Virus record (IMG/VR): IMGVR_UViG_3300048004_000231
Span: 1-62,928 of that record
Length of the DNA stretch: 62,928 nt
Direction: 5' to 3' (one strand)
Source of the DNA: an uncultured virus (IMG/VR IMGVR_UViG_3300048004_000231)
Lineage: Duplodnaviria; Heunggongvirae; Uroviricota; Caudoviricetes; Crassvirales
A program made the position numbers and the translations under genes. The notes beneath the pieces are model-generated. The model saw only the letters and a program-made list of their open reading frames with translations. It was not told the DNA's origin and did no database searches. Shown here one piece after another: positions 1,743-56,968 of the stretch. Numbering within the stretch: the stretch's first letter is position 1; every line of letters starts with the position of its first letter.

Positions 1743-3451
1743 GGTAGGGGATCATCATTAATAGTTATATCTTGATGAGGTATAAAGCAGCCTGACTTTG
1801 GTTCCCACTTGAAATGAGCTTCAGCGCCGTTTTCACCGAGGTTTTGGAACTTAACTTTCAACACTTTAGCTTTAACAGTTTTAGCTTCATAGTTTCTGTG
1901 AACTAAAATACCATGATAACTTGCATCATACCATTCACCACCACCTTTAATGTTATACATAGTTGGTTCTTCTATTTGACCATCTGAACCTTTATACATT
2001 TTAGTTGGGTGTGCTACAATAAATACTAATACATCATACTTCTTAGCAAAGATTTCAATCTTAGTTAAGTATTCCATTGTGTAACGGTTAACGTCTTCTG
2101 TTTTACAATCAACGTCTCTAACTTTATTGAATGGATCAATAACAAGGCACTTAATACCTTTACGCTTAACTAGCTCAGCGCCTTTACGCAGCACTGACTC
2201 AAGCGTGTAACGCTCCATATCTATAAAGAAAAAGTTGTCGTTCACATGCTCAGCAACTTGATTCCATTTATCACCACCAATATCTGTTTTACGTGGCATA
2301 TCCTGCCACACTTTACGCATTAGTTTGTGTGCATGGAGATAAGTCGGAGCATTTTCAGGCGAAGCGAAAGCTGTTTTCCATCCATAGTTCGCATTATAGC
2401 CGACACACATTTGATCGACAAAATCTGATTTACCCGAACTAGGTATACCAGTGACTGTAATAAATTGACCAGTGTAAGTTGAAAATATGTCATCGAAATT
2501 TTGTAAACCAATTTGATACCCGGGTTTGAAACCATTCGTAACAAAGTCGGTAACTTCGCCTTCAATATCTTTGAACGTTGTGACGTTTTCAAGCGGTACA
2601 GGTCGTGCTTTGGTAATACGCTTTGCCAGTTCTTCTTTTCCATATTCTAATAAATATTCATTTGCATCTTTGCAACCATTAAAATCAGCGAGGTAACAAA
2701 CTTCAGCGCCTAGTCTTCTAACTAGTTCACGCTGCAACGCTTGGCCTGCTTCGTCTGCATCTACTGCAATAATTATTTTTTCTTTGTCTTCAAAATAGTC
2801 TATACAACTATCTAAGTAATCTAAGTTATTAGTATTAAGCGTAGCACCATTTGGTACGGACACTACATTTTCAATACCCGCTTCATATAACGAAAGGGCA
2901 TCCATCTCGCCTTCTACAATAATACAATATTCATATCCTACGATACTATTTATATTATAGAAAACCTTTTCGGCACCCTTATATAACTTAAAGTTTTTAC
3001 GACCATCTCTGTATTTAACATTTATAAGCTGGTCTCCCATATAGTAATTAAACTGTATGGTATTCTCGGTCTTACCGGTTTGTGGCATAAACTCAGAGCC
3101 CTCGGTTACTTTGAGAGCTTTGAGTGTCTGCTTTGATATACCGCGTGATTCAAACCACTTTTCAACGTTAGTACTAACTTCGTGTATAGCATCTGGCGTT
3201 TCAGGCCGGACATATACTTTTTCGCTAGCGCCTTTGCGCTGATAAGTATGCATTTGAAATGTGCGATCACAATTATGGCAAGTTCCGAGACCCCGTTCCC
3301 AATCATAAGAAGCACACTTTGCTTTCTTATTTTCAGGTTTCCTATCTTCAGAACACATAGGGCAAGTACCCTGTGACGCTCCTACTTTTAGGTCGTATTG
3401 ATTAAACTGGTCAATCAAATATCCATTGATCTCCGAATTGTTAACTTGCAT
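1727..3451 (-). CDS. DNA primase-helicase (T7 gp4/Twinkle-like)
   Basis: N-terminal Zn finger CPMC...CHNC, TOPRIM IVEGEMDALS/DADEAG, Walker A GIPSSGKS, VIDP, IVAHPTK. Confidence 0.93.
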   Translation of the reverse strand: MQVNNSEINGYLIDQFNQYDLKVGASQGTCPMCSEDRKPENKKAKCASYDWERGLGTCHNCDRTFQMHTYQRKGASEKVYVRPETPDAIHEVSTNVEKWFESRGISKQTLKALKVTEGSEFMPQTGKTENTIQFNYYMGDQLINVKYRDGRKNFKLYKGAEKVFYNINSIVGYEYCIIVEGEMDALSLYEAGIENVVSVPNGATLNTNNLDYLDSCIDYFEDKEKIIIAVDADEAGQALQRELVRRLGAEVCYLADFNGCKDANEYLLEYGKEELAKRITKARPVPLENVTTFKDIEGEVTDFVTNGFKPGYQIGLQNFDDIFSTYTGQFITVTGIPSSGKSDFVDQMCVGYNANYGWKTAFASPENAPTYLHAHKLMRKVWQDMPRKTDIGGDKWNQVAEHVNDNFFFIDMERYTLESVLRKGAELVKRKGIKCLVIDPFNKVRDVDCKTEDVNRYTMEYLTKIEIFAKKYDVLVFIVAHPTKMYKGSDGQIEEPTMYNIKGGGEWYDASYHGILVHRNYEAKTVKAKVLKVKFQNLGENGAEAHFKWEPKSGCFIPHQDITINDDPLPWEAV

Positions 3452-3870: not shown

Positions 3871-4033
3871 ACTCGTTCAAGTTGTTGAAGGTTCTACGTA
3901 AAGCATCTAGTGATACACCATTGTTGCGGCGTAAGTTGTCTACTGCTTTTACATGGTTTTGGTTATTATAAAAATTATTCTCACTGGTTTTAATTCCAGT
4001 TACATTACACACTTTCATTTTTCTTCGTGCCAT
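3854..4033 (-). CDS. Small hypothetical protein (59 aa)
   Basis: Manual translation MARRKMKVCNVTGIKT...; fills gap between exonuclease and SSB. Confidence 0.55.
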   Translation of the reverse strand: MARRKMKVCNVTGIKTSENNFYNNQNHVKAVDNLRRNNGVSLDALRRTFNNLNEYGFNN

Positions 4034-4044
4034 AATATTTGGTT

Positions 4045-4776
4045 TTAAAGGGTTTTATTAATAAAATAATTAGTAGGATCGAAATCCTCGTTGTTGTAAA
4101 ATAGATCGTATGCAGCACTTGCATCTTCTACTTTGCGTTTACCTGCTTCATAAAAATCAGGCGAACAGTCAAAGATACCAATAATATGCGAATTTTTGTC
4201 TATTGCAATGAATAAAAATTCATAACCAAATAGCTTACTATAAATATAAGCCTGGCTATCGTAGTTCCACTTGCGTGCACTTGAACGAAAACCATTTACG
4301 TTACTTGTTGTTTTCAAATCAATAATAAGCTTCTCATCGTGATTAACAATATCAGCTTTACCTTTCCACATATTATTCTCCAGCTCAATTATGCCGGGTA
4401 CTTCATACTCTACATTATCACCTTGAATTAAACTCTTTGCAGTATCATTAGCTAAAAGTATTTCTCGCATCTTCTGTACATTATCAACTTCTTGTTGAAG
4501 CATACACATCTCTCCGCCAGATAACTCTTTATACTTTTTCGTATTCCTTGTACTTGCCTCAATAATTTTAAAGCGTTCTAATTTATCCGGTTCAAGTATA
4601 GCCGTGTGAAAGTAACTACCAATAATTAAATTGGGTGATGCTTTCGTCGGCTGCCCATACTGCAAAGGGTCATTCAGTAATGTTCCTATATCAGAATTGC
4701 TTAAATATTGTTTACCGAACGCACCGTAGTAATGTTCGTCATCTTTAAGCTTTTCTAAAATCTCAGGCTTGTTCAT
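4045..4776 (-). CDS. RecE/exonuclease VIII-like PD-(D/E)XK nuclease
   Basis: LSNSDI, GSYFHTAILEP, KGKADIV, IIDLKTT, YDSQAYIY motifs; adjacent to ERF. Confidence 0.85.
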   Translation of the reverse strand: MNKPEILEKLKDDEHYYGAFGKQYLSNSDIGTLLNDPLQYGQPTKASPNLIIGSYFHTAILEPDKLERFKIIEASTRNTKKYKELSGGEMCMLQQEVDNVQKMREILLANDTAKSLIQGDNVEYEVPGIIELENNMWKGKADIVNHDEKLIIDLKTTSNVNGFRSSARKWNYDSQAYIYSKLFGYEFLFIAIDKNSHIIGIFDCSPDFYEAGKRKVEDASAAYDLFYNNEDFDPTNYFINKTL

Positions 4777-30898: not shown

Positions 30899-31118
30899 AG
30901 AACTTATAAAAGTTGCAGAAGAAAAAATCATTACAAATACAGAAGATGATGTTTCTGCCGATAGACTTAAAAACGCGGCTGCTACAAAAAAGCTTGCAAT
31001 CTTTGATGCGTTTGAAATTCTTACTAGAATTGAAGTAGAGAAGGCGTTATTAGAAAACAAACCTCTAGTTGAAGAAAAAAAAGCGTTTAAAGGATTTGCT
31101 GAAAAAAGAAGTAAGTAA
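30843..31118 (+). CDS. Putative terminase small subunit
   Basis: Helical ~91-aa ORF directly upstream of terL (positional). Confidence 0.5.
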   Translation: MNTKETKRNIIRAGEKAVKELIKVAEEKIITNTEDDVSADRLKNAAATKKLAIFDAFEILTRIEVEKALLENKPLVEEKKAFKGFAEKRSK

Positions 31119-33325
31119 TGTATCAGCAAACATTATATAAGGTTATAGAGCCTATTAAAATAAACAAGCTAAAGCGATTTAACAAAGCTAAGCGATGGAA
31201 GTACGGTTATGACAAAGAAGAAGATATTGTTGTTATAAGTAAAACCGGCCAAATTGGAGATGTGTATAGCATACAAAATTTAAAAATAGCATTACCTCCA
31301 CCACCAAACAAATTAGATAAGAGCAGTAATAAATGGATCAAAGCGGAATATCCTAAAGAGCTTAATAAAATAAAAACTATATTTGATTGGAAAAATTACC
31401 CGCACGAATTTCAAGAAAAATGGGAACCATATATAGATGAAGAGTTTAAAAGACGGGAAGAGGGTTATTGGTTTTATAATAAAAATAAACCTACTTATAT
31501 TACTGGTACTCACTACATGTACTTGCAGTGGAGTAAGATTGATGTTGGGGCAGCAGACTTTAGGGAGTCAAATAGATTATTCTACATTTTCTGGGAAGCC
31601 TGTAAAGCAGACACAAGATCCTACGGTATGTGCTATCTTAAGAACAGACGATCAGGATTTTCATTCATGGCATCGGGCGAAACTGTTAACTTGGCAACAA
31701 TCAGTTCAGATTCAAGATTCGGTATCTTATCAAAATCGGGGAGTGATGCTAAAAAAATGTTTACCGACAAAGTAGTACCAATATCAATTAACTACCCTTT
31801 CTTTTTTAAACCGATACAAGACGGTATGGATCGTCCAAAAACAGAGCTAGCTTACAGAGTGCCAGCTTCAAAGCTAACACGTAAATCAATACAATCTGAG
31901 CAGCGAAGAGAAGAGCTTGAAGGACTTGATACAACTATAGACTGGAAAAATACAGGTGATAACAGTTATGACGGTGAAAAACTAAAGCTGTTAGTGCATG
32001 ATGAAAGCGGAAAATGGGAAAGACCTGACAACATATTAAATAACTGGAGAGTTACAAAAACCACATTAAGGCTAGGTAGTAGAGTTATCGGTAAATGTAT
32101 GATGGGCTCAACAAGTAATGCACTAGACAAAGGCGGTGAAAATTTTAAAAAATTATATGATGGATCAGACGTCACAAAGCGAAACCGCAATGGTCAGACT
32201 AAGTCAGGATTATATTCTTTGTTCATACCTATGGAATGGAATTACGAAGGATTCATTGATTCTTATGGACACCCTGTCTTTAATACGCCTACAGAACCTA
32301 CCGAGGGACCACACAGAGACATTATAGACGTCGGTGTAATTGAACACTGGGATAATGAGGTTGACGGATTAAAAGGCGACCAGGATAGCCTAAACGAATA
32401 TTACAGACAGTTCCCGCGCACAGAGGAACATGCGTTTCGCGACGAAGCAAAAAACAGTATATTTAATCTTGCAAGGATATATGAGCAAATTGATTATAAT
32501 GAAGAAGTCGCAACTAATGTAGTAACTAAAGGAAATTTTCAATGGGAGCGTGGCATTAAAGACTCTAAAGTTATTTTTTTACCGGATAATAATGGTAGAT
32601 TTAATATAAGCTGGGTACCGCCAATAGCTTTGCAAAATAGGTGCATAATAAAAAACGGAGTGCGCTATCCAGGTAATGAGCATATGGGCGCATTTGGGTG
32701 TGATAGTTACGATATATCAGGAACAACTGATGGGCAAGGTTCTAAAGGTGCTTTACACGGATTAACAAAGTTTAGTATGGAAGAGGCACCGGCTAATACA
32801 TTTTTTTTAGAATATGTTGCCCGACCGCAAACAGCAGAAACATTTTTTGAAGACGTTTTAATGTCATTAGTGTTTTATGGGATGCCATTACTTGCTGAAA
32901 ATAATAAGCCTAGATTACTATATTATTTAAAAAGAAGAGGTTATAGAGGTTACTCAATGAATAGGCCTGATAAAGTTTGGAATAAACTATCTATATCAGA
33001 AAAAGAAGTAGGAGGTATACCAAACTCATCCGAAGATATAAAGCAAGCTCACGCGGCGGCAATTGAAACTTATATTCAATCTTATGTAGGTAATAATCAA
33101 AATGGTATAAGCAATAATATATATTTTAACAGAACTTTGAATGATTGGGCAAAGTTTGATATAAATAAACGAACAAAGTTTGATGCGGCAATAAGCTCAG
33201 GTTTAGCAATAATGGCATGCAACAGACATTTGTATTCCCCAGTTGGAAAGAAAAACAAGGCTAAACTTAATTTAAGTTTTGCAAAATATAAAAACAGCGG
33301 TTTAAGATCGCAAATAATAGATTAA
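31118..33325 (+). CDS. terL: Terminase large subunit
   Basis: KNRRSGFS Walker A-like, LLVHDESGK Walker B, GSTSN, nuclease GCDSYD...FDAAISSG. Confidence 0.85.
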   Translation: MYQQTLYKVIEPIKINKLKRFNKAKRWKYGYDKEEDIVVISKTGQIGDVYSIQNLKIALPPPPNKLDKSSNKWIKAEYPKELNKIKTIFDWKNYPHEFQEKWEPYIDEEFKRREEGYWFYNKNKPTYITGTHYMYLQWSKIDVGAADFRESNRLFYIFWEACKADTRSYGMCYLKNRRSGFSFMASGETVNLATISSDSRFGILSKSGSDAKKMFTDKVVPISINYPFFFKPIQDGMDRPKTELAYRVPASKLTRKSIQSEQRREELEGLDTTIDWKNTGDNSYDGEKLKLLVHDESGKWERPDNILNNWRVTKTTLRLGSRVIGKCMMGSTSNALDKGGENFKKLYDGSDVTKRNRNGQTKSGLYSLFIPMEWNYEGFIDSYGHPVFNTPTEPTEGPHRDIIDVGVIEHWDNEVDGLKGDQDSLNEYYRQFPRTEEHAFRDEAKNSIFNLARIYEQIDYNEEVATNVVTKGNFQWERGIKDSKVIFLPDNNGRFNISWVPPIALQNRCIIKNGVRYPGNEHMGAFGCDSYDISGTTDGQGSKGALHGLTKFSMEEAPANTFFLEYVARPQTAETFFEDVLMSLVFYGMPLLAENNKPRLLYYLKRRGYRGYSMNRPDKVWNKLSISEKEVGGIPNSSEDIKQAHAAAIETYIQSYVGNNQNGISNNIYFNRTLNDWAKFDINKRTKFDAAISSGLAIMACNRHLYSPVGKKNKAKLNLSFAKYKNSGLRSQIID

Positions 33326-33326
33326 T

Positions 33327-35750
33327 ATGGCTGAGTCAGTTGTAAAAAGTTATTTTCCAAGTCAAGTCGCAAGCGATTTAGAAAAAATAAGCCCTGAGTA
33401 TGGGCTTAAGGTCGCTAAAGCTATTGAGCATGAATGGTTTAAAAGAGACTCGGGCACTACTCGTTTTTATAATAACCAAAATCAATATCATAAATTAAGA
33501 TTATATGCTAGAGGCGAGCAGCCTGTACAAAAATATAAAGATGAGTTATCAATAAACGGTGATTTATCATATCTTAATTTAGATTGGAAACCTGTACCTA
33601 TCATACCTAAGTTTGTAGATATTGTTGTTAATGGAATAGCAGAAAGAACTTATGATATAAAAGCTTATTCACAGGATCCTTACGGCGTAGAAAAAAGAAC
33701 AAAATATATGGAGTCAATTTTGCGAGATATGAAAACGCAAGATTTAAATACTTTTGTTCAAGAAAAGTTTGATATAAACTTATTTGAAAACGACCCGTCC
33801 ACTTTGCCAACATCGGAAGAAGAGCTATCTGTGCATATGCAGCTAACATATAAACAATCTATTGAACTTGCGGAAGAGCAAGCAATTAACACAGTTCTAG
33901 AGCAAAATAAATACGAATTAATTAAAAAACAGTTTTATTATGATTTAGCTGTTTTAGGTATTGGCGCAACAAAGACTACGTTTAATACGGCTGAAGGTGT
34001 TAAAATTGAATACGTTGACCCTGCAGATATTGTTTATTCATATACTGACTCGCCTTATTTTGATGACATATATTATATAGGTGAAATTAAAACAATACCT
34101 ATTAATGAATTAAAAAGACAATTTCCTAATCTTACTAATGAAGACTTAGAAGAAATTACAAAGCAAGGTGTGCAAAATACGGATTTTTATCATCGTACAT
34201 TAAATGAAACAAATAATGTAGATGCTAACTCAGTGCAGATTTTGTATTTTAATTATAAGACTTATATGAACGAAGTCTACAAAATTAAAAGCACTGCTAC
34301 AGGAGCTGAGAAAGCTTTATTAAAAAATGATCAATTTAATCCACCTAAAGACGATAGAACTAGGTTTGAAAAAGTATCAAGGTCATTAGAAGTATTATAT
34401 GAGGGTGCTTTAATATTAGGTACTAATAAACTTCTTAAATGGGAAATGGCACAAAATATGATGCGTCCTAAAAGCGATGTTACTAAAGTTAAAATGAATT
34501 ACGCTTTAGTAGCACCTAGAATGTATAAAGGAAAAGTTGAATCATTAGTAGGCCGTATTACTGGATTTGCTGATATGATTCAATTAACGCATTTAAAGCT
34601 ACAGCAAGTAATGTCTCGTATGGTGCCAGATGGAGTATATCTTGACGCCGATGGTATTGCGGAAATAGATTTAGGCAACGGAACTAATTACAATCCACAA
34701 GAAGCACTAAATATGTTTTTTCAAACAGGATCTGTTATTGGTCGATCGTTTACATCGGAAGGTGATATGAACCCCGGTAAAGTGCCTATACAAGAAATCA
34801 CAAGCGGTAGCGGTGGAAATAAATTAGGTGTATTAATTAATACATATAATTATTACTTGCAAATGATTCGTGATGTGACCGGATTAAATGAAGCAAGAGA
34901 TGGTAGCATGCCTGACAAAAATGCTTTAGTAGGTGTACAAAAATTAGCGGCTGCAAATTCAAACACTGCAACAAGGCATATATTACAAAGCGGATTATTT
35001 TTAACCGCTGAAACCGCCGAGGCTATTTCGATGCGTATCTCTGATATACTCGAGTACTCGCCAACAGCGGAAGCATTTATACAAAGTATTGGCGCTCATA
35101 ATGTAGCGACACTAAGTGAAGTTTCGCAATTACACTTGCGTGATTTTGGAATATTTTTAGAATTAACCCCTGACGAAGAAGAAAAGCAGTTGCTTGAAAA
35201 CAATATTCAGACGGCGTTATCAGCAGGGCTTATAGATTTAGACGATGCTATCGATATTAGAGAAATACGTAATATTAAGTTAGCAAATCAGCTTTTAAAA
35301 ATAAGACGCCAAAAGAAGCAAGAACGCGACCAGCAAATCCAACAGCAAAATATCCAAGCGCAAGCGCAGGCGAATGCACAAGCACAGCAAGTTGCGGCAC
35401 AGGCTGAAGTACAGAAAAGCCAGGCGCTAACAGCACAAAAAGCGGAGCTTGAACAAATTAAAGCTCAAATAGATAGTAATAAGCTAATGCAAGAAGCGCA
35501 GCTTAAAAAAGAATTAATGCAGCTAGAGTTCGAAATGAATATGCAACTTAAAGGAATTGAAGTTGACGGACAAAAACAAGCAATTAAAGAAAAGGAAGAT
35601 CGCAAAGATGATCGTACTAAATTACAAGCAACTCAACAAAGCGAGTTAATTAATCAAAGAAAAAATAATTTACCGCCTAAAGTATTCGAATCCTCGGGTA
35701 ATGATATACTTAGCGGTGATTTTGACTTAGGTTCCTTTGAACCCAAGTAA
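33327..35750 (+). CDS. Portal protein
   Basis: 807 aa after terL; PIIPKFVDIVVNG, IRDVTGLNEARDG, Q/A-rich barrel-like C-terminus. Confidence 0.8.
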   Translation: MAESVVKSYFPSQVASDLEKISPEYGLKVAKAIEHEWFKRDSGTTRFYNNQNQYHKLRLYARGEQPVQKYKDELSINGDLSYLNLDWKPVPIIPKFVDIVVNGIAERTYDIKAYSQDPYGVEKRTKYMESILRDMKTQDLNTFVQEKFDINLFENDPSTLPTSEEELSVHMQLTYKQSIELAEEQAINTVLEQNKYELIKKQFYYDLAVLGIGATKTTFNTAEGVKIEYVDPADIVYSYTDSPYFDDIYYIGEIKTIPINELKRQFPNLTNEDLEEITKQGVQNTDFYHRTLNETNNVDANSVQILYFNYKTYMNEVYKIKSTATGAEKALLKNDQFNPPKDDRTRFEKVSRSLEVLYEGALILGTNKLLKWEMAQNMMRPKSDVTKVKMNYALVAPRMYKGKVESLVGRITGFADMIQLTHLKLQQVMSRMVPDGVYLDADGIAEIDLGNGTNYNPQEALNMFFQTGSVIGRSFTSEGDMNPGKVPIQEITSGSGGNKLGVLINTYNYYLQMIRDVTGLNEARDGSMPDKNALVGVQKLAAANSNTATRHILQSGLFLTAETAEAISMRISDILEYSPTAEAFIQSIGAHNVATLSEVSQLHLRDFGIFLELTPDEEEKQLLENNIQTALSAGLIDLDDAIDIREIRNIKLANQLLKIRRQKKQERDQQIQQQNIQAQAQANAQAQQVAAQAEVQKSQALTAQKAELEQIKAQIDSNKLMQEAQLKKELMQLEFEMNMQLKGIEVDGQKQAIKEKEDRKDDRTKLQATQQSELINQRKNNLPPKVFESSGNDILSGDFDLGSFEPK

Positions 35751-50545: not shown

Positions 50546-53500
50546 ATGTTTGAATTAAACGGTAAGCAGTACTCTTTAACGCAAGTTGAAGCGGCTGCGG
50601 CAAAATCTAATAAAACATTGGATGAATATATCCAAGGAGCTGGCTTAATTACTTTAGAGCCGGGAAAGACAACTCCCACGGGTCAGGGTGCGCCTGTGGA
50701 GGAAACTGCAGCACCCGAAAACAATATGGTTTCCACTTCGGAAGCTGGTTCTTCGGTATCAGAAGAAATTGAGCTTACCAATATACAGTCTATAAAAAAT
50801 TCATTTTCAAATATGCTCGAGCAAACCGGGGATATTATAGAATTTTGGGGCGCTGACAAAGGGCAAGGTTCAGCTTTAGATATAGCCACTAATACAATCG
50901 CGGCAGGAATTTTCGGACAAAATAAAGTAGATGAATTTGCTGCGAATACATCAGATTACATGAGTGGAGGATTAGGTTCTGAAGAAACTATAAAAGCTAT
51001 TAAAGAATATGAAAAAGAATTAGCCCAAACAAAAAGAACCAAAGGTATTATTGAAAGCGCTAAAGAAGGTAATGTCGGAGGTATGGCGGCTGGGGTAATT
51101 AATGCAGTTACTAATGCATTAGGATCTGTAGCATATACGGTTGGAACTTTAGGCACTGGTAATATTTTGAATTATATAGCTAATAATTATGTAGAATTTA
51201 ATAAATTAAAAGCTAAAAATTTAGGAATATCATCAGAAGAACTTATTAAACAAGATAAAGCTGATGAAGCCGCACCCATTGCTATGGGATTTTTAAGCGG
51301 TTTATTAGAGAATATAGGTAGTAAAGCCATAGTACAAGGAGTAGTTAAAGGAACTACGGGCATGGCGACATTGGGCAAGCTTAATAAAAATCTTGCTCAA
51401 AAAATGTTTTATAATAAAACAGCAAGAAGAACCGCTAATATAATAGCCACTGGATCTTTGGAGGCTGTTACGGAAATATTACAGCATGCGTCCGATGCAG
51501 TTAATATAGAATTAGGTAGTGTAGCGGGTACTGATGAAAGCGCCGAGGTAATGTCTTCTTTCTTTGACGCTGTAACAAGCGAAGAAGGCTTAGAAGCGGG
51601 ATTACAAGGATTTTTAGGAGGCAGCGGTTTGTCAACAGGATCTTATTCTGCAAAAGCTTTAAATTCAGTAAGAGAAACCACCAACTTAAAAGAAATTGAT
51701 GGGCTTATACAAAAGTTATATAAGCTTAGAAAAAATTATACAGGCATTACAGACCCTACATCTAAAAAAGGGATAGAACAAAATATTAATACTGTAGAAC
51801 AAAAACTTTCAGATTTAATTGATAAAGGCAATTTAATATATGAATCTTTATCAGATGAGCAAATATCAAAAATAGAAAGCCTAAAAGACTTAGCCAATAC
51901 TGCTGCTAATGAAATAACTGAACTAAATAAAAAATTTAGGCTAGGCATTATTAGCAAAAACGAATATGCCGCTGCATTTGAAGGTTTTAAATTACAATAC
52001 GAACAATCCAGAAATGAGCTAGTAAATTTAAAGTTAGAAGAAAACATATCTACTGTTCAACAAGAAGCGTCACAGAGAGGCACAACAGTTGAAGCGTTTG
52101 AAACAGCCGAAGAATATGCCCAGGCATATAAAGCTTTAACGGGAAAAGATGTAGTAAACTCAAACGGTGTGTTTATTGGTAAAGGCAAAATACTTATTAA
52201 TAAACAATTGGCTAGAGAAACCTTTTCTGTAAATGTAGCAAAACACGAATTTTTACATAATATATTAAATGCTGTTGTTGGAAATCAGGGTAAACAACGT
52301 AATGCAGTTAAAAAAATGCAGCGCGCGATGACCACTACCCAAAGGCGCGAAGTGAATAAAGTTTTAAAAAGAAAACGTATAAAAGCTAATTCTTCTGAAT
52401 ATTATACAGAATATATGAATGTGTTTTCTGATTTATTAGCTACTGATAGAGTAGGTTTTGAAAAAACTGTTTTTGAAAAAATTGGTGGTGCAATAACCGG
52501 TATATTTAAACCATTAGGTTTTGATAATATGAATTTTGCAAATGGGCAAAGCGCATATAACTTTATTAAATCTTATAGCGCAGCAAAAGGTCCTGAATTT
52601 AGTAATATTGTTGAAACTGTAGTAGGCGATATTAATTTAGGTGAGGTTAAAGCTTTTGCAGGGTCTCAGTTTGATGCAAACTTACAAGGTCAAGTACAAA
52701 GGCTTGGACAAGTTGAGCTTAGCCCTGAAGATGTTGCGGGTATAAGTGAAGAACAAATTGCTCGTCTCAAAGATGAAAAATGGAAAAAAAGCGGCGCGGA
52801 TACTGCAATAGCAGAATTATATGCCAGTGGTTTATTAGCCAGATTAATTGGAAGTAAAATTACTTCTGAAGATAGAAAGCTTCCAAATTTTAATGAAGAC
52901 GATTTTATAATGGGTTCTATTGAGGAAATTATTCCTCATATACGGAACTTTAAGCCCGGCCAAAACGACAACTTATCTGGTTGGATAAATTCTCAATTAG
53001 CAAATAAGATTAAACAAGCTAAGAAAACAGGTAAAGTTGGTACTAAACAAAAATTTGAAGAAAGCCTATCTTCTATAACAGAAGAAGGCCAAGAAAGATT
53101 TCAGGTTGCTTCAGATTATTTAGATAGCCAATCTTTAATTGAAATACGTCAGGAAGAAGAAGCCTTACAAAAAGCAAAAATAAATCCTTTAAGCGCATTT
53201 TTTAATGAAGAGGAAGCTGCTGATTATTATTCTAGAACTGTTACGGCTATAAATGAAATGTCTGAAGAAGAGTTTAATAGCTTAACTTTTGCTAGCATGC
53301 CCGATATGGTGCCTGAAATTACAGCTAGGTTATTTGGCATGAAACTTAATGCTTATTTAGGCCTTAATAAAGAAGGCAAACCTACCTCCGCGAATTTTTC
53401 AGGAGATAAAACAAAAGCTCAAAAATTTATATATGCCAATGCTGATACCTTAATTAGACTGTTACCTAACGGGGCTATATTAGAAGGGGATACCGCTAAA

Positions 53501-56500
53501 GAAAGTTTAATAAATACAGGTCTTCAAATACCTAGAAAAATACAACAAGCTTTTTATGAAAAACAAGGCCGCGTAAGTTTAGGAGCAGGCTTAGCCCCCT
53601 TTCAATTAAAAGACAATATAACTAAAAAAGATTTTTTAGCTACATTTGGTATTTCTACTGATGGCAAATTTGCTGTATTAAAAAATGGTGAAGCAAGAGC
53701 AATATCAATGATCGCAATGGCTCGCCTTGTTGGCAGACTTTTAAGCAATACTTCGGTTAGGGCTGCTGTAGATTTAACGCTAGAGCAGGCTCAAGATATT
53801 AAAGCAGGTATTAGTGTTGGGCAATTTGATGCTATTGAGCAAGATGCTGTTAATGATTTAAGAGTTTTTGATGTTTCAATGAACTTAATTGAAAATTTTG
53901 ATCAGCTTTTAAATTCAAATAAAATTAAAAACTTATTAGAAGATCAAGGGGTAGACGTTTCTAAGCTTGATACTACAAATATATTGCTTGTTAATAAACC
54001 CAAAGGCAAAGGGCAAGAATTAGATTTAGACAAAGGTAAGAGCTTCTTTCAAAATATAAGAGAATTAACTAAAGGTTTAGATAGAGATATTGCAAAAAAC
54101 AAAACTTTATTACGCGCTATTTATGGTAATTGGCGTGATACTTTTTTAGGGTTCCCGTTAGATAAAAGTGATTATAAATACCTTATTAAAAATAATAAAA
54201 AATTATCTTTTGAAAATGCCGAAGATTTAAAATTAATTAATGATTTTTTAAATGAAGCATCTGCGGGAACAAGAGATCAGGTTTTTACAGAAGAGCAAGC
54301 TGTGTGGGTTAGCGACTATACTAAAGAACTTATAAAACAATATAAAAAATCTTTAGCAAAAAATAAGCCTAAAGGTAATAGTAATACTCCAAATTCCGCA
54401 AGTAAAATTAGAACGCGTAAAAACCGACTAATGGATAAAAACGTTGAGCAAGACGCCCAAAATGCGTGGAACGATTTATCCGAACATAATGAAACTAATA
54501 ATTTATTAGCTAAAGTACTAATAAGCACATATAAAGACTACTATCATAATGGGCCCGGTACAAAAACAGAAAAATTAAAGTCAATAATAATTAGCTTAGT
54601 TTCTAACCGAAACTCCGTAAACGGATTCAGGTCTTTATCAAATGTTGTTGGAGTTGTATGGAGCCCCGATAAAGTTGCTCAATACCATATGGAGCACACT
54701 GAGTCGATAGCATCTGTAGTTAAAGACATTTTATTACAAATTATTTTACCTATAGGCAGTGAAATTAAATTTAACTCCACATCTGTTTTAATACCTAAAG
54801 AATTAGCTAATTTAAGAGACGGCAATAAAGAAACTAAATTTAGTGCATCGGCATTTAAAAAAATATTGTCAAAATTTGTTAATGATTCCGATAATGATTA
54901 TGAATATTTAGGCGAAAATGGGCAATTTGACAAAGCAGAAGAATTAGGTGAAATGATTGGCCGGACATCTGATATTAGTAGTAAATCTGAAATATCAGAA
55001 AAGAAAGCTAATTTGTTAGGTAAAAACAAAGGTAAATGGAAATTCTTTATACCACCTTCCGCAGATGATCTTATGGGACTTATGTACTATATGGTTGGTA
55101 AAGGAAAACAAGGGGATAAAGATTTAGCTTGGATAAAGAAAAATATAAGCGACCCGTTTGCTAAGGGAATAAATCAATTTACCGCGCATAGACAAATGGT
55201 TATGTCACAGTTTAAAGATTTTAAAAAGCAATTGCGTAAACAAAATATTAAACTAAAAGAAGTAAACAGCACTGGTTTTACAAATGAAGTAGCTGTTAGG
55301 GTTTATATATGGACTAAGCGCGGCATGCAATTACCCGAAGGTGATTTAACGAAGTCAGAAGTTGCAGAACTTATAAAGGTAGTTAAAGAAAATAGCGGGT
55401 TAGAAGATTTTGCAAAACAAGTAATGAACTTAACTACTTTTGCTGAATTGCCGTCTATTGAAAAGAACTGGGATAAAGGATCTATTACAACTGATATTTT
55501 AGATTATTTAAATACATCTTCAAGAGATAAATTTTTAGAAGAGTACGCTGCCAATATAGAAGAAATATTTGGTAAGTTTGGTCAAGATGGTAAACTTTCC
55601 GGCCCAACAGCCAATAGACTGAGAGCAGCTTATGGCGATAATTATTTAGAAGCGTTAAGCGATGTTCTTTATAGAATGAAAACAGGTAGGGCAAGACCAG
55701 CAGGGTCAAATAGATTAACTAATCAATTTGTAAACTGGATTAATGACTCAGTAGGTGCCATTATGTTCTTTAACACAAGATCGGCATTATTACAGCAGCT
55801 TTCTTTTGTTAACTTTATTAACTTTAGTGACAACAATCCGTTAAAAGCTGGAGCAGCATTTGCAAATCAAAAACAATTTTGGAGCGACTATGCCATGCTA
55901 TTTAACTCTGACTTTTTAAAAGAAAGACGTTCAGGGCTGAAAACGGATGTTAACGCAGATGAAATTGCTAAAGCCGCAGAAGAAGGCAGAAATCCTATAC
56001 GGTCTGTTATTGCTTCAATACTTAAGAAAGGATTTTTACCAACACAAATGGCGGATTCACACGCAATAGCTATGGGCGGGGCTTCTTTTTATAGAAACCG
56101 TTTAAATAGATATTTAAGTGAAGGCATGGAGCAGCAACAAGCTGAACAGCAAGCATTTTTAGATTTTCAAGAAGCCGCGGAAGAATCTCAGCAGTCATCA
56201 AGACCTGATCGTATATCACAGCAGCAGGCAAGTCCATTAGGGCGCCTTATATTAGCTTTTGCCAACACGCCTATGCAATATGCTCGCTTAACTAAAAAGG
56301 CAGCTTTAGATTTAATTAACGGCCGAGGGGATTGGAAAACAAACCTTAGTAAATTAATGTATTACGGAGCTGTTCAAAATATAGTGTTCTCTGCTATGCA
56401 AACTGCTTTATTCGCAATGATGTTTGATGACGAGGAAGAGGATAAAGAAAGAGACAGATATTTTAGAATTGCAAATAGTTCAGCTGATGGTTTATTAAGA

Positions 56501-56968
56501 GGTTTAGGATTTGGTGGTGCCGCAGTAGCTACTATTAAAAATATGATACTTGAAGCTATTAATCAAACTAATAAAGCAAGGCCTAATTATGAAAGGGTAG
56601 CTATTAAAGCTTTAACGTTATCGCCGCCTATAGATTCTAAAATACGTAAATTAATGTCTGCTGGTAGAACATTTACTTATAGAAATACAAGAGAAAAAAT
56701 GGCTAAAGAGGGATTTAGTTTAGATAATCCAGCCTTTGAGGCATTAGGTCAGGTTGTATCAGCGACAACTAATTTACCTATGGATCGCGTAATTAGAAAA
56801 ATGGATAACTTGTCTACACCAATTAGACAAGATGTTGAGGCTTGGCAAGCTATATCATTAGCACTTGGTTATTCTAAATGGGATGTTGGTTTAATTGAAA
56901 CGCAAACGAAAAAATCTAAAGGTAAAGTTATATCGAAAAGCACTAAGAAAAAAACAATTAAAAAATAA
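50546..56968 (+). CDS. Giant multidomain (polyvalent) internal virion protein: zincin protease, sigma-70 region-2-like module, possible nuclease module, helical C-terminus
   Basis: HEFLH at aa 567-571; sigma r2-like aa 784-825; QFD at aa 708, 1093, 1460. Confidence 0.7.
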   Translation: MFELNGKQYSLTQVEAAAAKSNKTLDEYIQGAGLITLEPGKTTPTGQGAPVEETAAPENNMVSTSEAGSSVSEEIELTNIQSIKNSFSNMLEQTGDIIEFWGADKGQGSALDIATNTIAAGIFGQNKVDEFAANTSDYMSGGLGSEETIKAIKEYEKELAQTKRTKGIIESAKEGNVGGMAAGVINAVTNALGSVAYTVGTLGTGNILNYIANNYVEFNKLKAKNLGISSEELIKQDKADEAAPIAMGFLSGLLENIGSKAIVQGVVKGTTGMATLGKLNKNLAQKMFYNKTARRTANIIATGSLEAVTEILQHASDAVNIELGSVAGTDESAEVMSSFFDAVTSEEGLEAGLQGFLGGSGLSTGSYSAKALNSVRETTNLKEIDGLIQKLYKLRKNYTGITDPTSKKGIEQNINTVEQKLSDLIDKGNLIYESLSDEQISKIESLKDLANTAANEITELNKKFRLGIISKNEYAAAFEGFKLQYEQSRNELVNLKLEENISTVQQEASQRGTTVEAFETAEEYAQAYKALTGKDVVNSNGVFIGKGKILINKQLARETFSVNVAKHEFLHNILNAVVGNQGKQRNAVKKMQRAMTTTQRREVNKVLKRKRIKANSSEYYTEYMNVFSDLLATDRVGFEKTVFEKIGGAITGIFKPLGFDNMNFANGQSAYNFIKSYSAAKGPEFSNIVETVVGDINLGEVKAFAGSQFDANLQGQVQRLGQVELSPEDVAGISEEQIARLKDEKWKKSGADTAIAELYASGLLARLIGSKITSEDRKLPNFNEDDFIMGSIEEIIPHIRNFKPGQNDNLSGWINSQLANKIKQAKKTGKVGTKQKFEESLSSITEEGQERFQVASDYLDSQSLIEIRQEEEALQKAKINPLSAFFNEEEAADYYSRTVTAINEMSEEEFNSLTFASMPDMVPEITARLFGMKLNAYLGLNKEGKPTSANFSGDKTKAQKFIYANADTLIRLLPNGAILEGDTAKESLINTGLQIPRKIQQAFYEKQGRVSLGAGLAPFQLKDNITKKDFLATFGISTDGKFAVLKNGEARAISMIAMARLVGRLLSNTSVRAAVDLTLEQAQDIKAGISVGQFDAIEQDAVNDLRVFDVSMNLIENFDQLLNSNKIKNLLEDQGVDVSKLDTTNILLVNKPKGKGQELDLDKGKSFFQNIRELTKGLDRDIAKNKTLLRAIYGNWRDTFLGFPLDKSDYKYLIKNNKKLSFENAEDLKLINDFLNEASAGTRDQVFTEEQAVWVSDYTKELIKQYKKSLAKNKPKGNSNTPNSASKIRTRKNRLMDKNVEQDAQNAWNDLSEHNETNNLLAKVLISTYKDYYHNGPGTKTEKLKSIIISLVSNRNSVNGFRSLSNVVGVVWSPDKVAQYHMEHTESIASVVKDILLQIILPIGSEIKFNSTSVLIPKELANLRDGNKETKFSASAFKKILSKFVNDSDNDYEYLGENGQFDKAEELGEMIGRTSDISSKSEISEKKANLLGKNKGKWKFFIPPSADDLMGLMYYMVGKGKQGDKDLAWIKKNISDPFAKGINQFTAHRQMVMSQFKDFKKQLRKQNIKLKEVNSTGFTNEVAVRVYIWTKRGMQLPEGDLTKSEVAELIKVVKENSGLEDFAKQVMNLTTFAELPSIEKNWDKGSITTDILDYLNTSSRDKFLEEYAANIEEIFGKFGQDGKLSGPTANRLRAAYGDNYLEALSDVLYRMKTGRARPAGSNRLTNQFVNWINDSVGAIMFFNTRSALLQQLSFVNFINFSDNNPLKAGAAFANQKQFWSDYAMLFNSDFLKERRSGLKTDVNADEIAKAAEEGRNPIRSVIASILKKGFLPTQMADSHAIAMGGASFYRNRLNRYLSEGMEQQQAEQQAFLDFQEAAEESQQSSRPDRISQQQASPLGRLILAFANTPMQYARLTKKAALDLINGRGDWKTNLSKLMYYGAVQNIVFSAMQTALFAMMFDDEEEDKERDRYFRIANSSADGLLRGLGFGGAAVATIKNMILEAINQTNKARPNYERVAIKALTLSPPIDSKIRKLMSAGRTFTYRNTREKMAKEGFSLDNPAFEALGQVVSATTNLPMDRVIRKMDNLSTPIRQDVEAWQAISLALGYSKWDVGLIETQTKKSKGKVISKSTKKKTIKK
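50662..50716 (+). promoter_or_regulatory. -1 programmed ribosomal frameshift signal (slippery heptamer + H-type pseudoknot)
   Basis: In-phase G GGA AAG, 7-nt spacer, stem1 CCACGGGT/GCCTGTGG, stem2 GGGTGC/GCACCC. Confidence 0.72.

Follow-up and report, generated by a model that had tools for sequence, protein, structure and literature searches.

A probable programmed -1 frameshift with a conserved -1-frame peptide near the start of a giant gene in an uncultured crAss-like marine phage

The DNA analysed here, referred to below at its full length as the window, is a virus record (IMG/VR IMGVR_UViG_3300048004_000231; Crassvirales) from an uncultured marine phage; it is complete, has 62,928 bp and carries direct terminal repeats. 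Near the start of its giant gene, P0001, we describe a cassette of about 100 nt in which a slippery heptamer, a downstream RNA structure and a short -1 open reading frame (ORF) lie within the 0-frame coding sequence. A programmed -1 frameshift with a functional -1-encoded peptide is in our judgement the probable explanation (probability roughly 0.85). Comparison of related loci establishes, at the level of sequence, the slip motif, the spacer behind it, the paired stems, two open frames and a -1 frame that is under purifying selection and possesses no start of its own. The evidence from the single sequence is weak against chance, and it is only after the comparison with relatives that the signal stands far beyond it.

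Layout of the cassette and the proposed frameshift

The original prediction had been made from the letters of this one sequence. The elements that it described are all present when the DNA is read directly: the in-phase heptamer GGGAAAG at 50662-68, the 7-nt spacer, the layout of an H-type pseudoknot with loop CA and an 11-nt loop 3, a GC-rich patch (0.54 across 50650-50749 versus 0.26-0.46 in the flanks) and a -1 frame running to a stop at 50770-72, which would give a product of 75 amino acids. The features of the cassette and its gene are as follows.

50546..56968, + strand: giant 0-frame gene, P0001, 2140 aa, the last large gene of the crAss-like structural block
50546..50668, + strand: N-terminal module, codons 1-41, common to the short and the long product
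50662..50668, + strand: slippery heptamer G GGA AAG, in phase as X XXY YYZ (codons 39-41 are CCG GGA AAG)
50669..50675, + strand: spacer of 7 nt, invariant in length in the 28-sequence alignment
50676..50682, + strand: 5' arm of stem 1 (CCACGGGT spans 50676-83, where 50683 makes an optional eighth G.U pair with 50692)
50684..50685, + strand: loop 1, CA, 2 nt
50686..50691, + strand: 5' arm of stem 2, GGGTGC, inside the loop of stem 1, which makes an H-type pseudoknot
50693..50699, + strand: 3' arm of stem 1 (GCCTGTGG spans 50692-99, with the eighth pair)
50700..50710, + strand: loop 3, 11 nt
50711..50716, + strand: 3' arm of stem 2, GCACCC, pairing with 50686-91
50668..50769, + strand: the 34 -1-frame codons after the slip (DNSH...IRRN), own start codon absent
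50689..50709, + strand: -1-frame Cys knuckle CxCGGNC (CxCGSxC, CCGDNCxC or HxCGC in other clades)
50725..50757, + strand: -1-frame tail YGFHFGSWFFG (family motif [YF]GxxxGx[WYF]FxG), conserved more widely than any other part of the cassette
50770..50772, + strand: -1-frame stop TGA, terminating the 75-residue product

Read directly, stem 1 pairs 50676-83 with 50692-99, that is, 8 bp of which two are G.U. The -1 reading after the slip is DNSHGSGCACGGNCSTRKQYGFHFGSWFFGIRRN, and the predicted short product comprises 41 + 34 = 75 residues, the 0 frame going on for 2099 codons; example tryptic peptides from the -1-frame part of this product would be DNSHGSGCACGGNCSTR and QYGFHFGSWFFGIR. Further upstream the -1 frame carries a TGA at 50623-25, and between that stop and the heptamer it contains no ATG, GTG or TTG.

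According to the mechanism that we propose, ribosomes would start at the ATG at 50546, translate the 41-codon N-terminal module, and meet the GC-rich pseudoknot 7 nt ahead with their P site on GGA and their A site on AAG. A fraction of them would slip one base back (GGA to GGG, AAG to AAA), read the 34 codons of the -1 frame and stop at the TGA at 50770, releasing a 75-residue protein composed of the N-terminal module, the Cys knuckle CxCGGNC, a basic linker and the Gly/aromatic tail YGFHFGSWFFG. For ribosomes that do not slip, this stretch would encode an acidic linker rich in Ser and Thr, free of constraint, and they would continue to the 2140-residue virion protein. Because the N-terminal module is always shared by the two products, yet swapped between lineages, the short protein most probably uses it to co-assemble with the giant protein or to compete for its partner, and the Cys/aromatic tail would be supplied in a ratio fixed by the efficiency of slipping. 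We infer that the short protein could help, as an accessory or in the manner of a chaperone, when virions are assembled or the genome is ejected. The knuckle has 3-4 Cys or His within about 9 residues in most clades, and the guess from this is that it binds metal; for the tail, a hydrophobic Gly/aromatic 11-mer with basic flanks, the guess is a beta-hairpin inserting into a membrane or a partner.

Conservation among relatives and the weight of the evidence

A protein-based scan led to three loci, all of which keep the cassette, one of them with an unrelated upstream N-terminus and two with unrelated downstream sequence. IMG/VR was scanned with a 27-nt pattern from the middle of the cassette, which put no constraint on the heptamer, on the 5' arm of stem 1 or on any position 3' of stem 2, and the 30 stretches returned were all family members (30/30). 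Together with the window and the three loci of the protein scan, which lie on the same contigs as three of the 30, these gave 28 distinct sequences. The two-frame layout was common to every one of them: in 28/28 loci there is a 0-frame ATG 123-207 nt upstream, no stop interrupts the 0 frame before the gene or the contig ends, the -1 stop falls 75-99 nt past the stem-2 anchor, and the upstream -1 frame contains no ATG, GTG or TTG.

This absence of start codons bears on the possibility that the -1 ORF is translated by internal initiation or re-initiation, giving a peptide of about 36-48 residues without the N-terminal module. The -1 frame is clearly coding, and in many loci a -1 stop just before the heptamer makes the ORF short and self-contained, as such a route would have it. 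We nevertheless hold it to be very improbable, since upstream -1-frame ATG, GTG or TTG codons are absent in 28/28 loci here and in 42/43 of the survey described below, in 44/44 loci the conserved -1 peptide has an in-phase slip motif at its 5' edge, the structure 6-7 nt past the slip motif has the geometry of a frameshift stimulator, and the three tail-bearing database proteins all have an N-terminal module fused in front.

Two degenerate patterns were also scanned, pattern A allowing only -1-synonymous change of CxCGGNCS and pattern B only 0-frame-synonymous change of A.VEET[AV]AP. Pattern A gave 31 new loci (14 members with the tail, one member cut by the contig, one near the end and 15 unrelated), and pattern B gave 42 (three members, one near the end and 38 unrelated). 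The higher yield of members with pattern A suggests that drift of the core spares the -1 peptide more often than the 0-frame peptide, a result that is supporting, not decisive, the two patterns not being perfectly symmetrical. The combined set consists of 44 distinct loci, one unrelated match and two loci cut by contig ends having been rejected; none was dropped from the core-bearing set for lacking a tail. Their slip sites are GGGAAAG (33 loci), GGATTTT (8), GGGAAAT (1), AGGAAAG (1) and GGAAAAG (1). The heptamer that had been expected in homologues is thus kept as an in-phase A-site Z_ZZN motif (A_AAG, A_AAT or T_TTT) in 44/44, but in the canonical X XXY YYZ form in 34/44.

The ratios of non-synonymous to synonymous polymorphism (pN/pS), pooled over these 44 distinct loci, differ between the frames as follows.

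Tail block (13 codons from the tail Tyr/Phe): -1 frame 0.37, 0 frame 1.48, +1 frame 2.47
Heptamer-to-STR block: -1 frame 0.55, 0 frame 1.60, +1 frame 0.68

Variation and entropy peak at the third positions of the -1 frame. In the three tail Gly codons the entropy is 0, 0 and ~1-1.5 at positions 1, 2 and 3, and each third-position change there alters the 0-frame amino acid, the 0-frame residues changing non-conservatively. Where the distance from the Cys motif to the tail differs, it does so by whole codons, in multiples of three. The earlier impression that the -1 frame looks protein-like was borne out by the purifying selection in the tail block (0.37 versus 1.48 in the 0 frame) and by the recurrence of the tail motif across relatives. 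The -1 ORF, open and with no start of its own, therefore probably encodes a real, selected peptide under purifying selection, with the 0 frame unconstrained; since no locus has a closed 0 frame, translation would use both frames, the 0 frame serving as a linker tolerant of change and the -1 frame being read for its sequence.

The same figures argue against an untranslated -1 frame, where conservation would come from two sources, an element acting as RNA or DNA (a structure, a recombination hot spot or a regulatory site) and a 0-frame linker peptide (PGKTTPT..GAxVEETAAP) that is itself conserved. The tail block is free at -1 third positions while the -1 amino acids are kept, with a 0-frame pN/pS of 1.48; the core-to-tail indels come in multiples of three; the tail is retained in clades with wholly different nucleotide cores; and the tail motif never occurs in other frames or places. 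An element of this kind would be compatible with the nearly invariant 27-nt core and its flanks, mosaic as at a recombination junction, with the supported RNA structure and with the atypical codon usage of the -1 frame, and yet it is the explanation to which we give the slightest chance.

Selection on the -1 peptide (pN/pS 0.37) likewise speaks against a shift that would act only to limit the 2140-residue protein by sending a set share of the ribosomes into early termination, the -1 peptide being a functionless by-product. Such a by-product needs just a nearby stop, not 34 conserved codons, and the tail motif survives in clades where other sequences have taken over as slip site, stimulatory RNA and Cys motif. 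The shift does come very early, as expected of an attenuator, the giant gene follows translationally packed upstream genes (preceding stop at 50541-43, ATG at 50546), and by our own reasoning few copies of the giant protein are probably needed per virion; taken together, we find this account very improbable.

Within the preferred reading, a programmed frameshift that produces a functional peptide, the stimulator was assessed by counting pairs in the 28-sequence alignment (27 distinct rows). All seven pairs of stem 1 are 100% paired, with two compensatory positions (GU/AU/GC/UA and CG/GC/UA/UG), and the six pairs of stem 2 are also 100% paired, three of them varying one-sidedly to G.U. These counts carry a caveat: the pattern used for the search had itself prescribed the 3' arm of stem 1 and stem 2 to a large extent, variation being possible throughout the 5' arm of stem 1 and at four positions in the 3' arm of stem 2. 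When the registers are shifted by 1-3 nt, 30-63% of cells are paired. A structure 5-9 nt downstream with covariation, as looked for in a stimulator, was thus found, with its 7-nt spacer and the covariation of stem 1. The stem 1 of 8 bp proposed originally is supported as 7 bp; its eighth pair (50683/50692) is kept in 8/27 relatives only.

For an unbiased survey, the only basis for picking loci was a pair of invariant motifs in the C-terminal part of the giant protein, and the best 80 of at least 524 were taken; six of these are cut at the 5' end, and 74 were evaluable, three of them with a broken or short ORF. The -1-frame tail motif was present in the first 250 codons in 43/74 (strict form) or 56/74 (relaxed form), and elsewhere it was found in 0/74 in the 0 frame, in 0/74 in the +1 frame and in 0/429 later 250-codon blocks of the -1 frame. 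A -1-frame start codon is absent in 42/43 of the strict-motif loci. K41, the AAG codon of the heptamer, is conserved to at least 90% in a set of 19 giant proteins whose identity is only 31-76%.

In other clades the -1 peptide reads SKDKRLCKCGSSCGVK..RYGIQIGKWFFGITK or GKASTCCGDNCTCSR..RYGIAVGKWFFGITK; the peptide is retained there and its nucleotides are replaced. The -1-frame Cys/WFFG signature that homologues were expected to show is met with in its tail part across clades, while the Cys motif varies. Slip sites in these clades include A GCA AAG, A GTA AAG, G GAA AAG, A AAT TTT and G GAT TTT. One clade has a 9-bp hairpin 6 nt past the AAG, 100% paired in 21 distinct sequences. Distant loci (L113-L118, ~3900-4070) carry the tail YGITIGRWFFG behind T TTT TTT, G GGA AAC, or runs of eight or ten A, and mostly lack the CxCxxxC knuckle. 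That lineages swap the slip site and the stimulator (pseudoknot, hairpin, T- or A-runs) and keep the peptide may mean that selection maintains the recoding, not one particular signal.

Some further observations concern individual clades. In loci L122-L173 (-1 peptide SKDKRLCKCGS..) the loop of the 9-bp hairpin has GGATCC, and a second GGATCC or GGATTC lies ~25 nt downstream in the tail codons, which would make a pseudoknot possible there too. In L124, L126, L128, L134, L140 and others a -1-frame stop, often TGA, stands one or two codons before the slip site, and the -1 ORF thus opens almost exactly at the heptamer. The ten-A run of L114 could also permit transcriptional slippage; in the window this was ruled out, the run of three A being too short. 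A second, compensating shift back to the 0 frame was ruled out as well, as the end of the -1 ORF is variable in length and sequence and has no conserved shift site.

A number of results weigh against a programmed frameshift. The AT-rich window contains 171 in-phase slippery heptamers in 17,762 codons scanned, GGGAAAG being in phase just once among these codons, and a -1 open run of 36 codons is only in the top ~4% for the window. The nested fold of 50669-50730 has z = +0.21, with 112/200 shuffles equal or better (ViennaRNA, which scores no pseudoknots), and the best match in Rfam, RF01090, was non-significant (15.2 bits versus a gathering score of 45, E 6.4). The codon argument of the original prediction stood in one half: the 0-frame codons of the cassette are indeed uncommon (usage in the lowest 4-6% of 687 in-frame windows), but those of the -1 frame are more unusual still, being less typical than all 687. 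Covariation, expected in homologues for the stems, was seen as two compensatory pairs in stem 1, but compensatory changes in stem 2 are none, and full pairing is likewise seen for a nested alternative, in which stem 2 is combined with an inner 5-bp helix formed with the 3' arm of stem 1. This alternative has no compensatory change in the 27 distinct rows, and RNAalifold, which draws no pseudoknots, gives stem 2 with a weak inner helix; the pseudoknot is the better-supported reading of the two, though not a proven one. Eight of the 44 loci have GGATTTT, a non-canonical heptamer, and in a large second clade the P-site codons GCA and GTA are unable to re-pair after a slip, so that slipping there, if any, would rest on the A site alone. 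The cassette is absent from 18/74 evaluable giant genes, namely the three broken ORFs and mostly the most distant relatives (45-53% C-terminal identity), and the giant-gene family can therefore do without it. The AlphaFold model of the -1 peptide is of low confidence (predicted local distance difference test, pLDDT, 51.6), with a possible hairpin noted only, and the role proposed for the short protein is solely inferential. Finally, the support is sequence comparison throughout, for a phage known from metagenomes alone.

The giant gene and its interchangeable N-terminal modules

The structural block is of the crAss-like type, with the large terminase at 31118-33325 and the portal at 33327-35750. 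The 1449-residue protein encoded at 40983-45332 matches a crassvirus virion-protein PHROG and, below threshold, the crassvirus muzzle C-terminal domain. The terminase is ~45% identical to terminases of Flavobacterium 'elemo' podophages and also matches those of Cellulophaga and Tenacibaculum phages. P0001 lies downstream of the muzzle and cargo-like genes.

The giant protein has no Pfam or PHROG match at curated thresholds; its neighbours, its HExxH region and the three fused database proteins described below were also run against Pfam and PHROGs, with no family found for the giant or the short proteins. A phmmer search of P0001 against all PDB chains gave no matches at E <= 0.01, tblastn of the giant protein against 50,697 isolate phage records gave none, and neither did blastn of the cassette region against isolate phages. 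Its relatives fall into at least 4,615 metagenome protein clusters, and among the 120 cluster matches listed none bears a functional name or Pfam domain.

In 19 aligned homologues of 31-76% identity, the HExxH at residues 567-571 (52244-52258; H567, E568, H571) and E622 (52409-52411) are invariant and the C-terminal third is very conserved. The HExxH with E622 looks like a zincin-type metallopeptidase signature, at a place with no Pfam family. The AlphaFold model of the C-terminal 677 residues (1464-2140) is all-alpha and of low confidence (pLDDT 56.9), and a Foldseek search of this low-confidence model against the PDB gave no matches at E <= 0.001. Hints of the role of the giant protein thus come only from its post-muzzle position, the invariant HExxH and the all-alpha C-terminus; the designation 'ejection protein', drawn from the gene position, is plausible.

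Upstream of the cassette we found at least six unrelated types of N-terminal module, 35-63 residues long, and downstream of it the first part of the giant protein also varies between loci, the cassette itself being constant. Whichever module is present, it is always common to the short and long products. One module type, ..IVQRMIDAGEPEENI.., also opens smaller proteins of 83-944 residues (L211-L219, L222, L230, ~position 3001 of each); these lie on further phage contigs, seemingly unrelated, that have no cassette and no -1 tail, and the module may be a handle in general use at the N-terminus of phage proteins. In L065 the module YxVGxDxYxIPExxxxxFLxxYPxA is repeated once just past the cassette, and modules can thus stand in tandem, on either side of the frameshift site.

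A profile of the -1 peptide had only three matches among 1.84 billion representatives, P0002, P0003 and P0004 (65, 83 and 73 aa), in which an N-terminal module and the tail are fused in a single frame. The IMG/VR relatives of P0002 and P0003 all have the two-frame layout, and in one of those proteins the frame changes 6 codons past the heptamer. As natural single-frame variants the three proteins are ambiguous versus assembly indels, and they were not counted as support.

Significance and comparison with known recoding systems

A wider proposition, to which we assign somewhat less than an even chance, is that slip site, stimulator and -1 ORF form a portable cassette that has spread, in uncultured marine phages of Bacteroidota, through giant virion genes belonging to a very large family, where it is joined to at least six unrelated N-terminal modules and to many different gene bodies. 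Its product would be an unrecognised small-protein family (N-terminal module, Cys/His knuckle and a YGxxxGxWFFG tail), made almost only as a trans-frame product and required as a cofactor of the giant protein in assembly or ejection, and the recoding itself would be under selection. Gene callers are blind to the short product, as seen from three proteins in 1.84 billion versus at least 4,615 host-gene clusters. If the frameshift is real, a hidden conserved small protein would be added to a widespread marine phage group, which would also offer a clear bacterial-virus case of a pseudoknot-stimulated, truncating -1 shift with a functional -1 part. The family would amount to a natural experiment in which recoding signals are exchanged (pseudoknot, hairpin or homopolymer; canonical or A-site-only) and the product is kept, and would provide a first handle on an unannotated family of ~2000-residue virion proteins.

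The crAss-like virion RNA polymerase gp66 of phi14:2, from a marine Flavobacteriia phage, is virion-associated, has ~2100-2200 residues and is encoded after the tail and muzzle genes. The giant gene resembles it in standing at the end of the structural block; it differs in that P0001 has no PDB sequence match and that its C-terminal third, all-alpha at low confidence, has no fold match, the middle of the protein being outside the model. These searches gave no sign that the giant protein is a virion RNA polymerase. Frameshifts that are unexplained have been described in RNA polymerase genes of Zeta group crAss-like phages, in a passage that mentions no recoding signal (PMC7886860). In the literature searched, supplementary files being outside its scope, no frameshift was reported for a gp66-type gene, and full-text searches within the same limits found no published description of the cassette frameshift. 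The mechanism would be classical; the gene family, the product and the modular spread would be new.

We know of no strong downstream structure at the lambda G-T site. G_GGA_AAG and A_AAG are given in a passage of one paper as highly shift-prone on bacterial ribosomes, Z_ZZN as the minimal -1 motif, and G_GGA_AAG as the site used by the G / G-T tail assembly chaperone of phage lambda (PMC5009743). On that account, the two systems share an identical heptamer, a position in a phage structural block, products with a common N-terminus and a ratio that matters for assembly. In lambda, however, the shift near the 3' end of G, a short ORF between the tail tube and tape measure genes, extends into T and the long form is rare, whereas the shift at codon 41 of 2140 truncates; here, moreover, the tail module is of crAss-like podovirus type with a muzzle, and the gene, which follows the muzzle and cargo-like genes, is not a tail chaperone. 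The original prediction had likened the logic to that of dnaX or copA and not to lambda G-T, and this agrees with a -1 stop after 34 codons, a 0 frame that continues for 2099 more and, at the sequence level, an N-terminus common to the short and the long product.

In dnaX the shift comes about two thirds into the gene and the -1 stop follows almost immediately, so that gamma has no functional -1-encoded domain. Bacterial dnaX, with its products tau and gamma, is described in the passage mentioned above as using A_AAA_AAG and a stem-loop for a truncating -1 shift (PMC5009743). Going by this description, the likeness lies in a slip site with a Lys codon, a downstream RNA structure and a ratio of short and long products that share an N-terminus. 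The present cassette differs in the position of the shift, at codon 41 of 2140, in a -1 part that is conserved and functional-looking, and in a stimulator that would be a pseudoknot with covariation.

For Escherichia coli copA, the same passage describes an early -1 shift in a long gene that soon terminates translation and gives CopA(Z), a product of ~70 residues proposed to be a small partner or chaperone (PMC5009743). As far as that passage goes, the resemblance is that a short product (75 residues here) shares its N-terminal domain with a long one (2140 here). The genes are unrelated, the gene that carries the cassette having no Pfam match; in addition, the -1 frame here contributes 34 residues that are conserved and have motifs of their own, a Cys knuckle and an aromatic tail, and the shared N-terminal module is of 41 residues only and interchangeable between lineages. 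In its logic, if the frameshift operates as proposed, copA with CopA(Z) is the closest analogue of the cassette.

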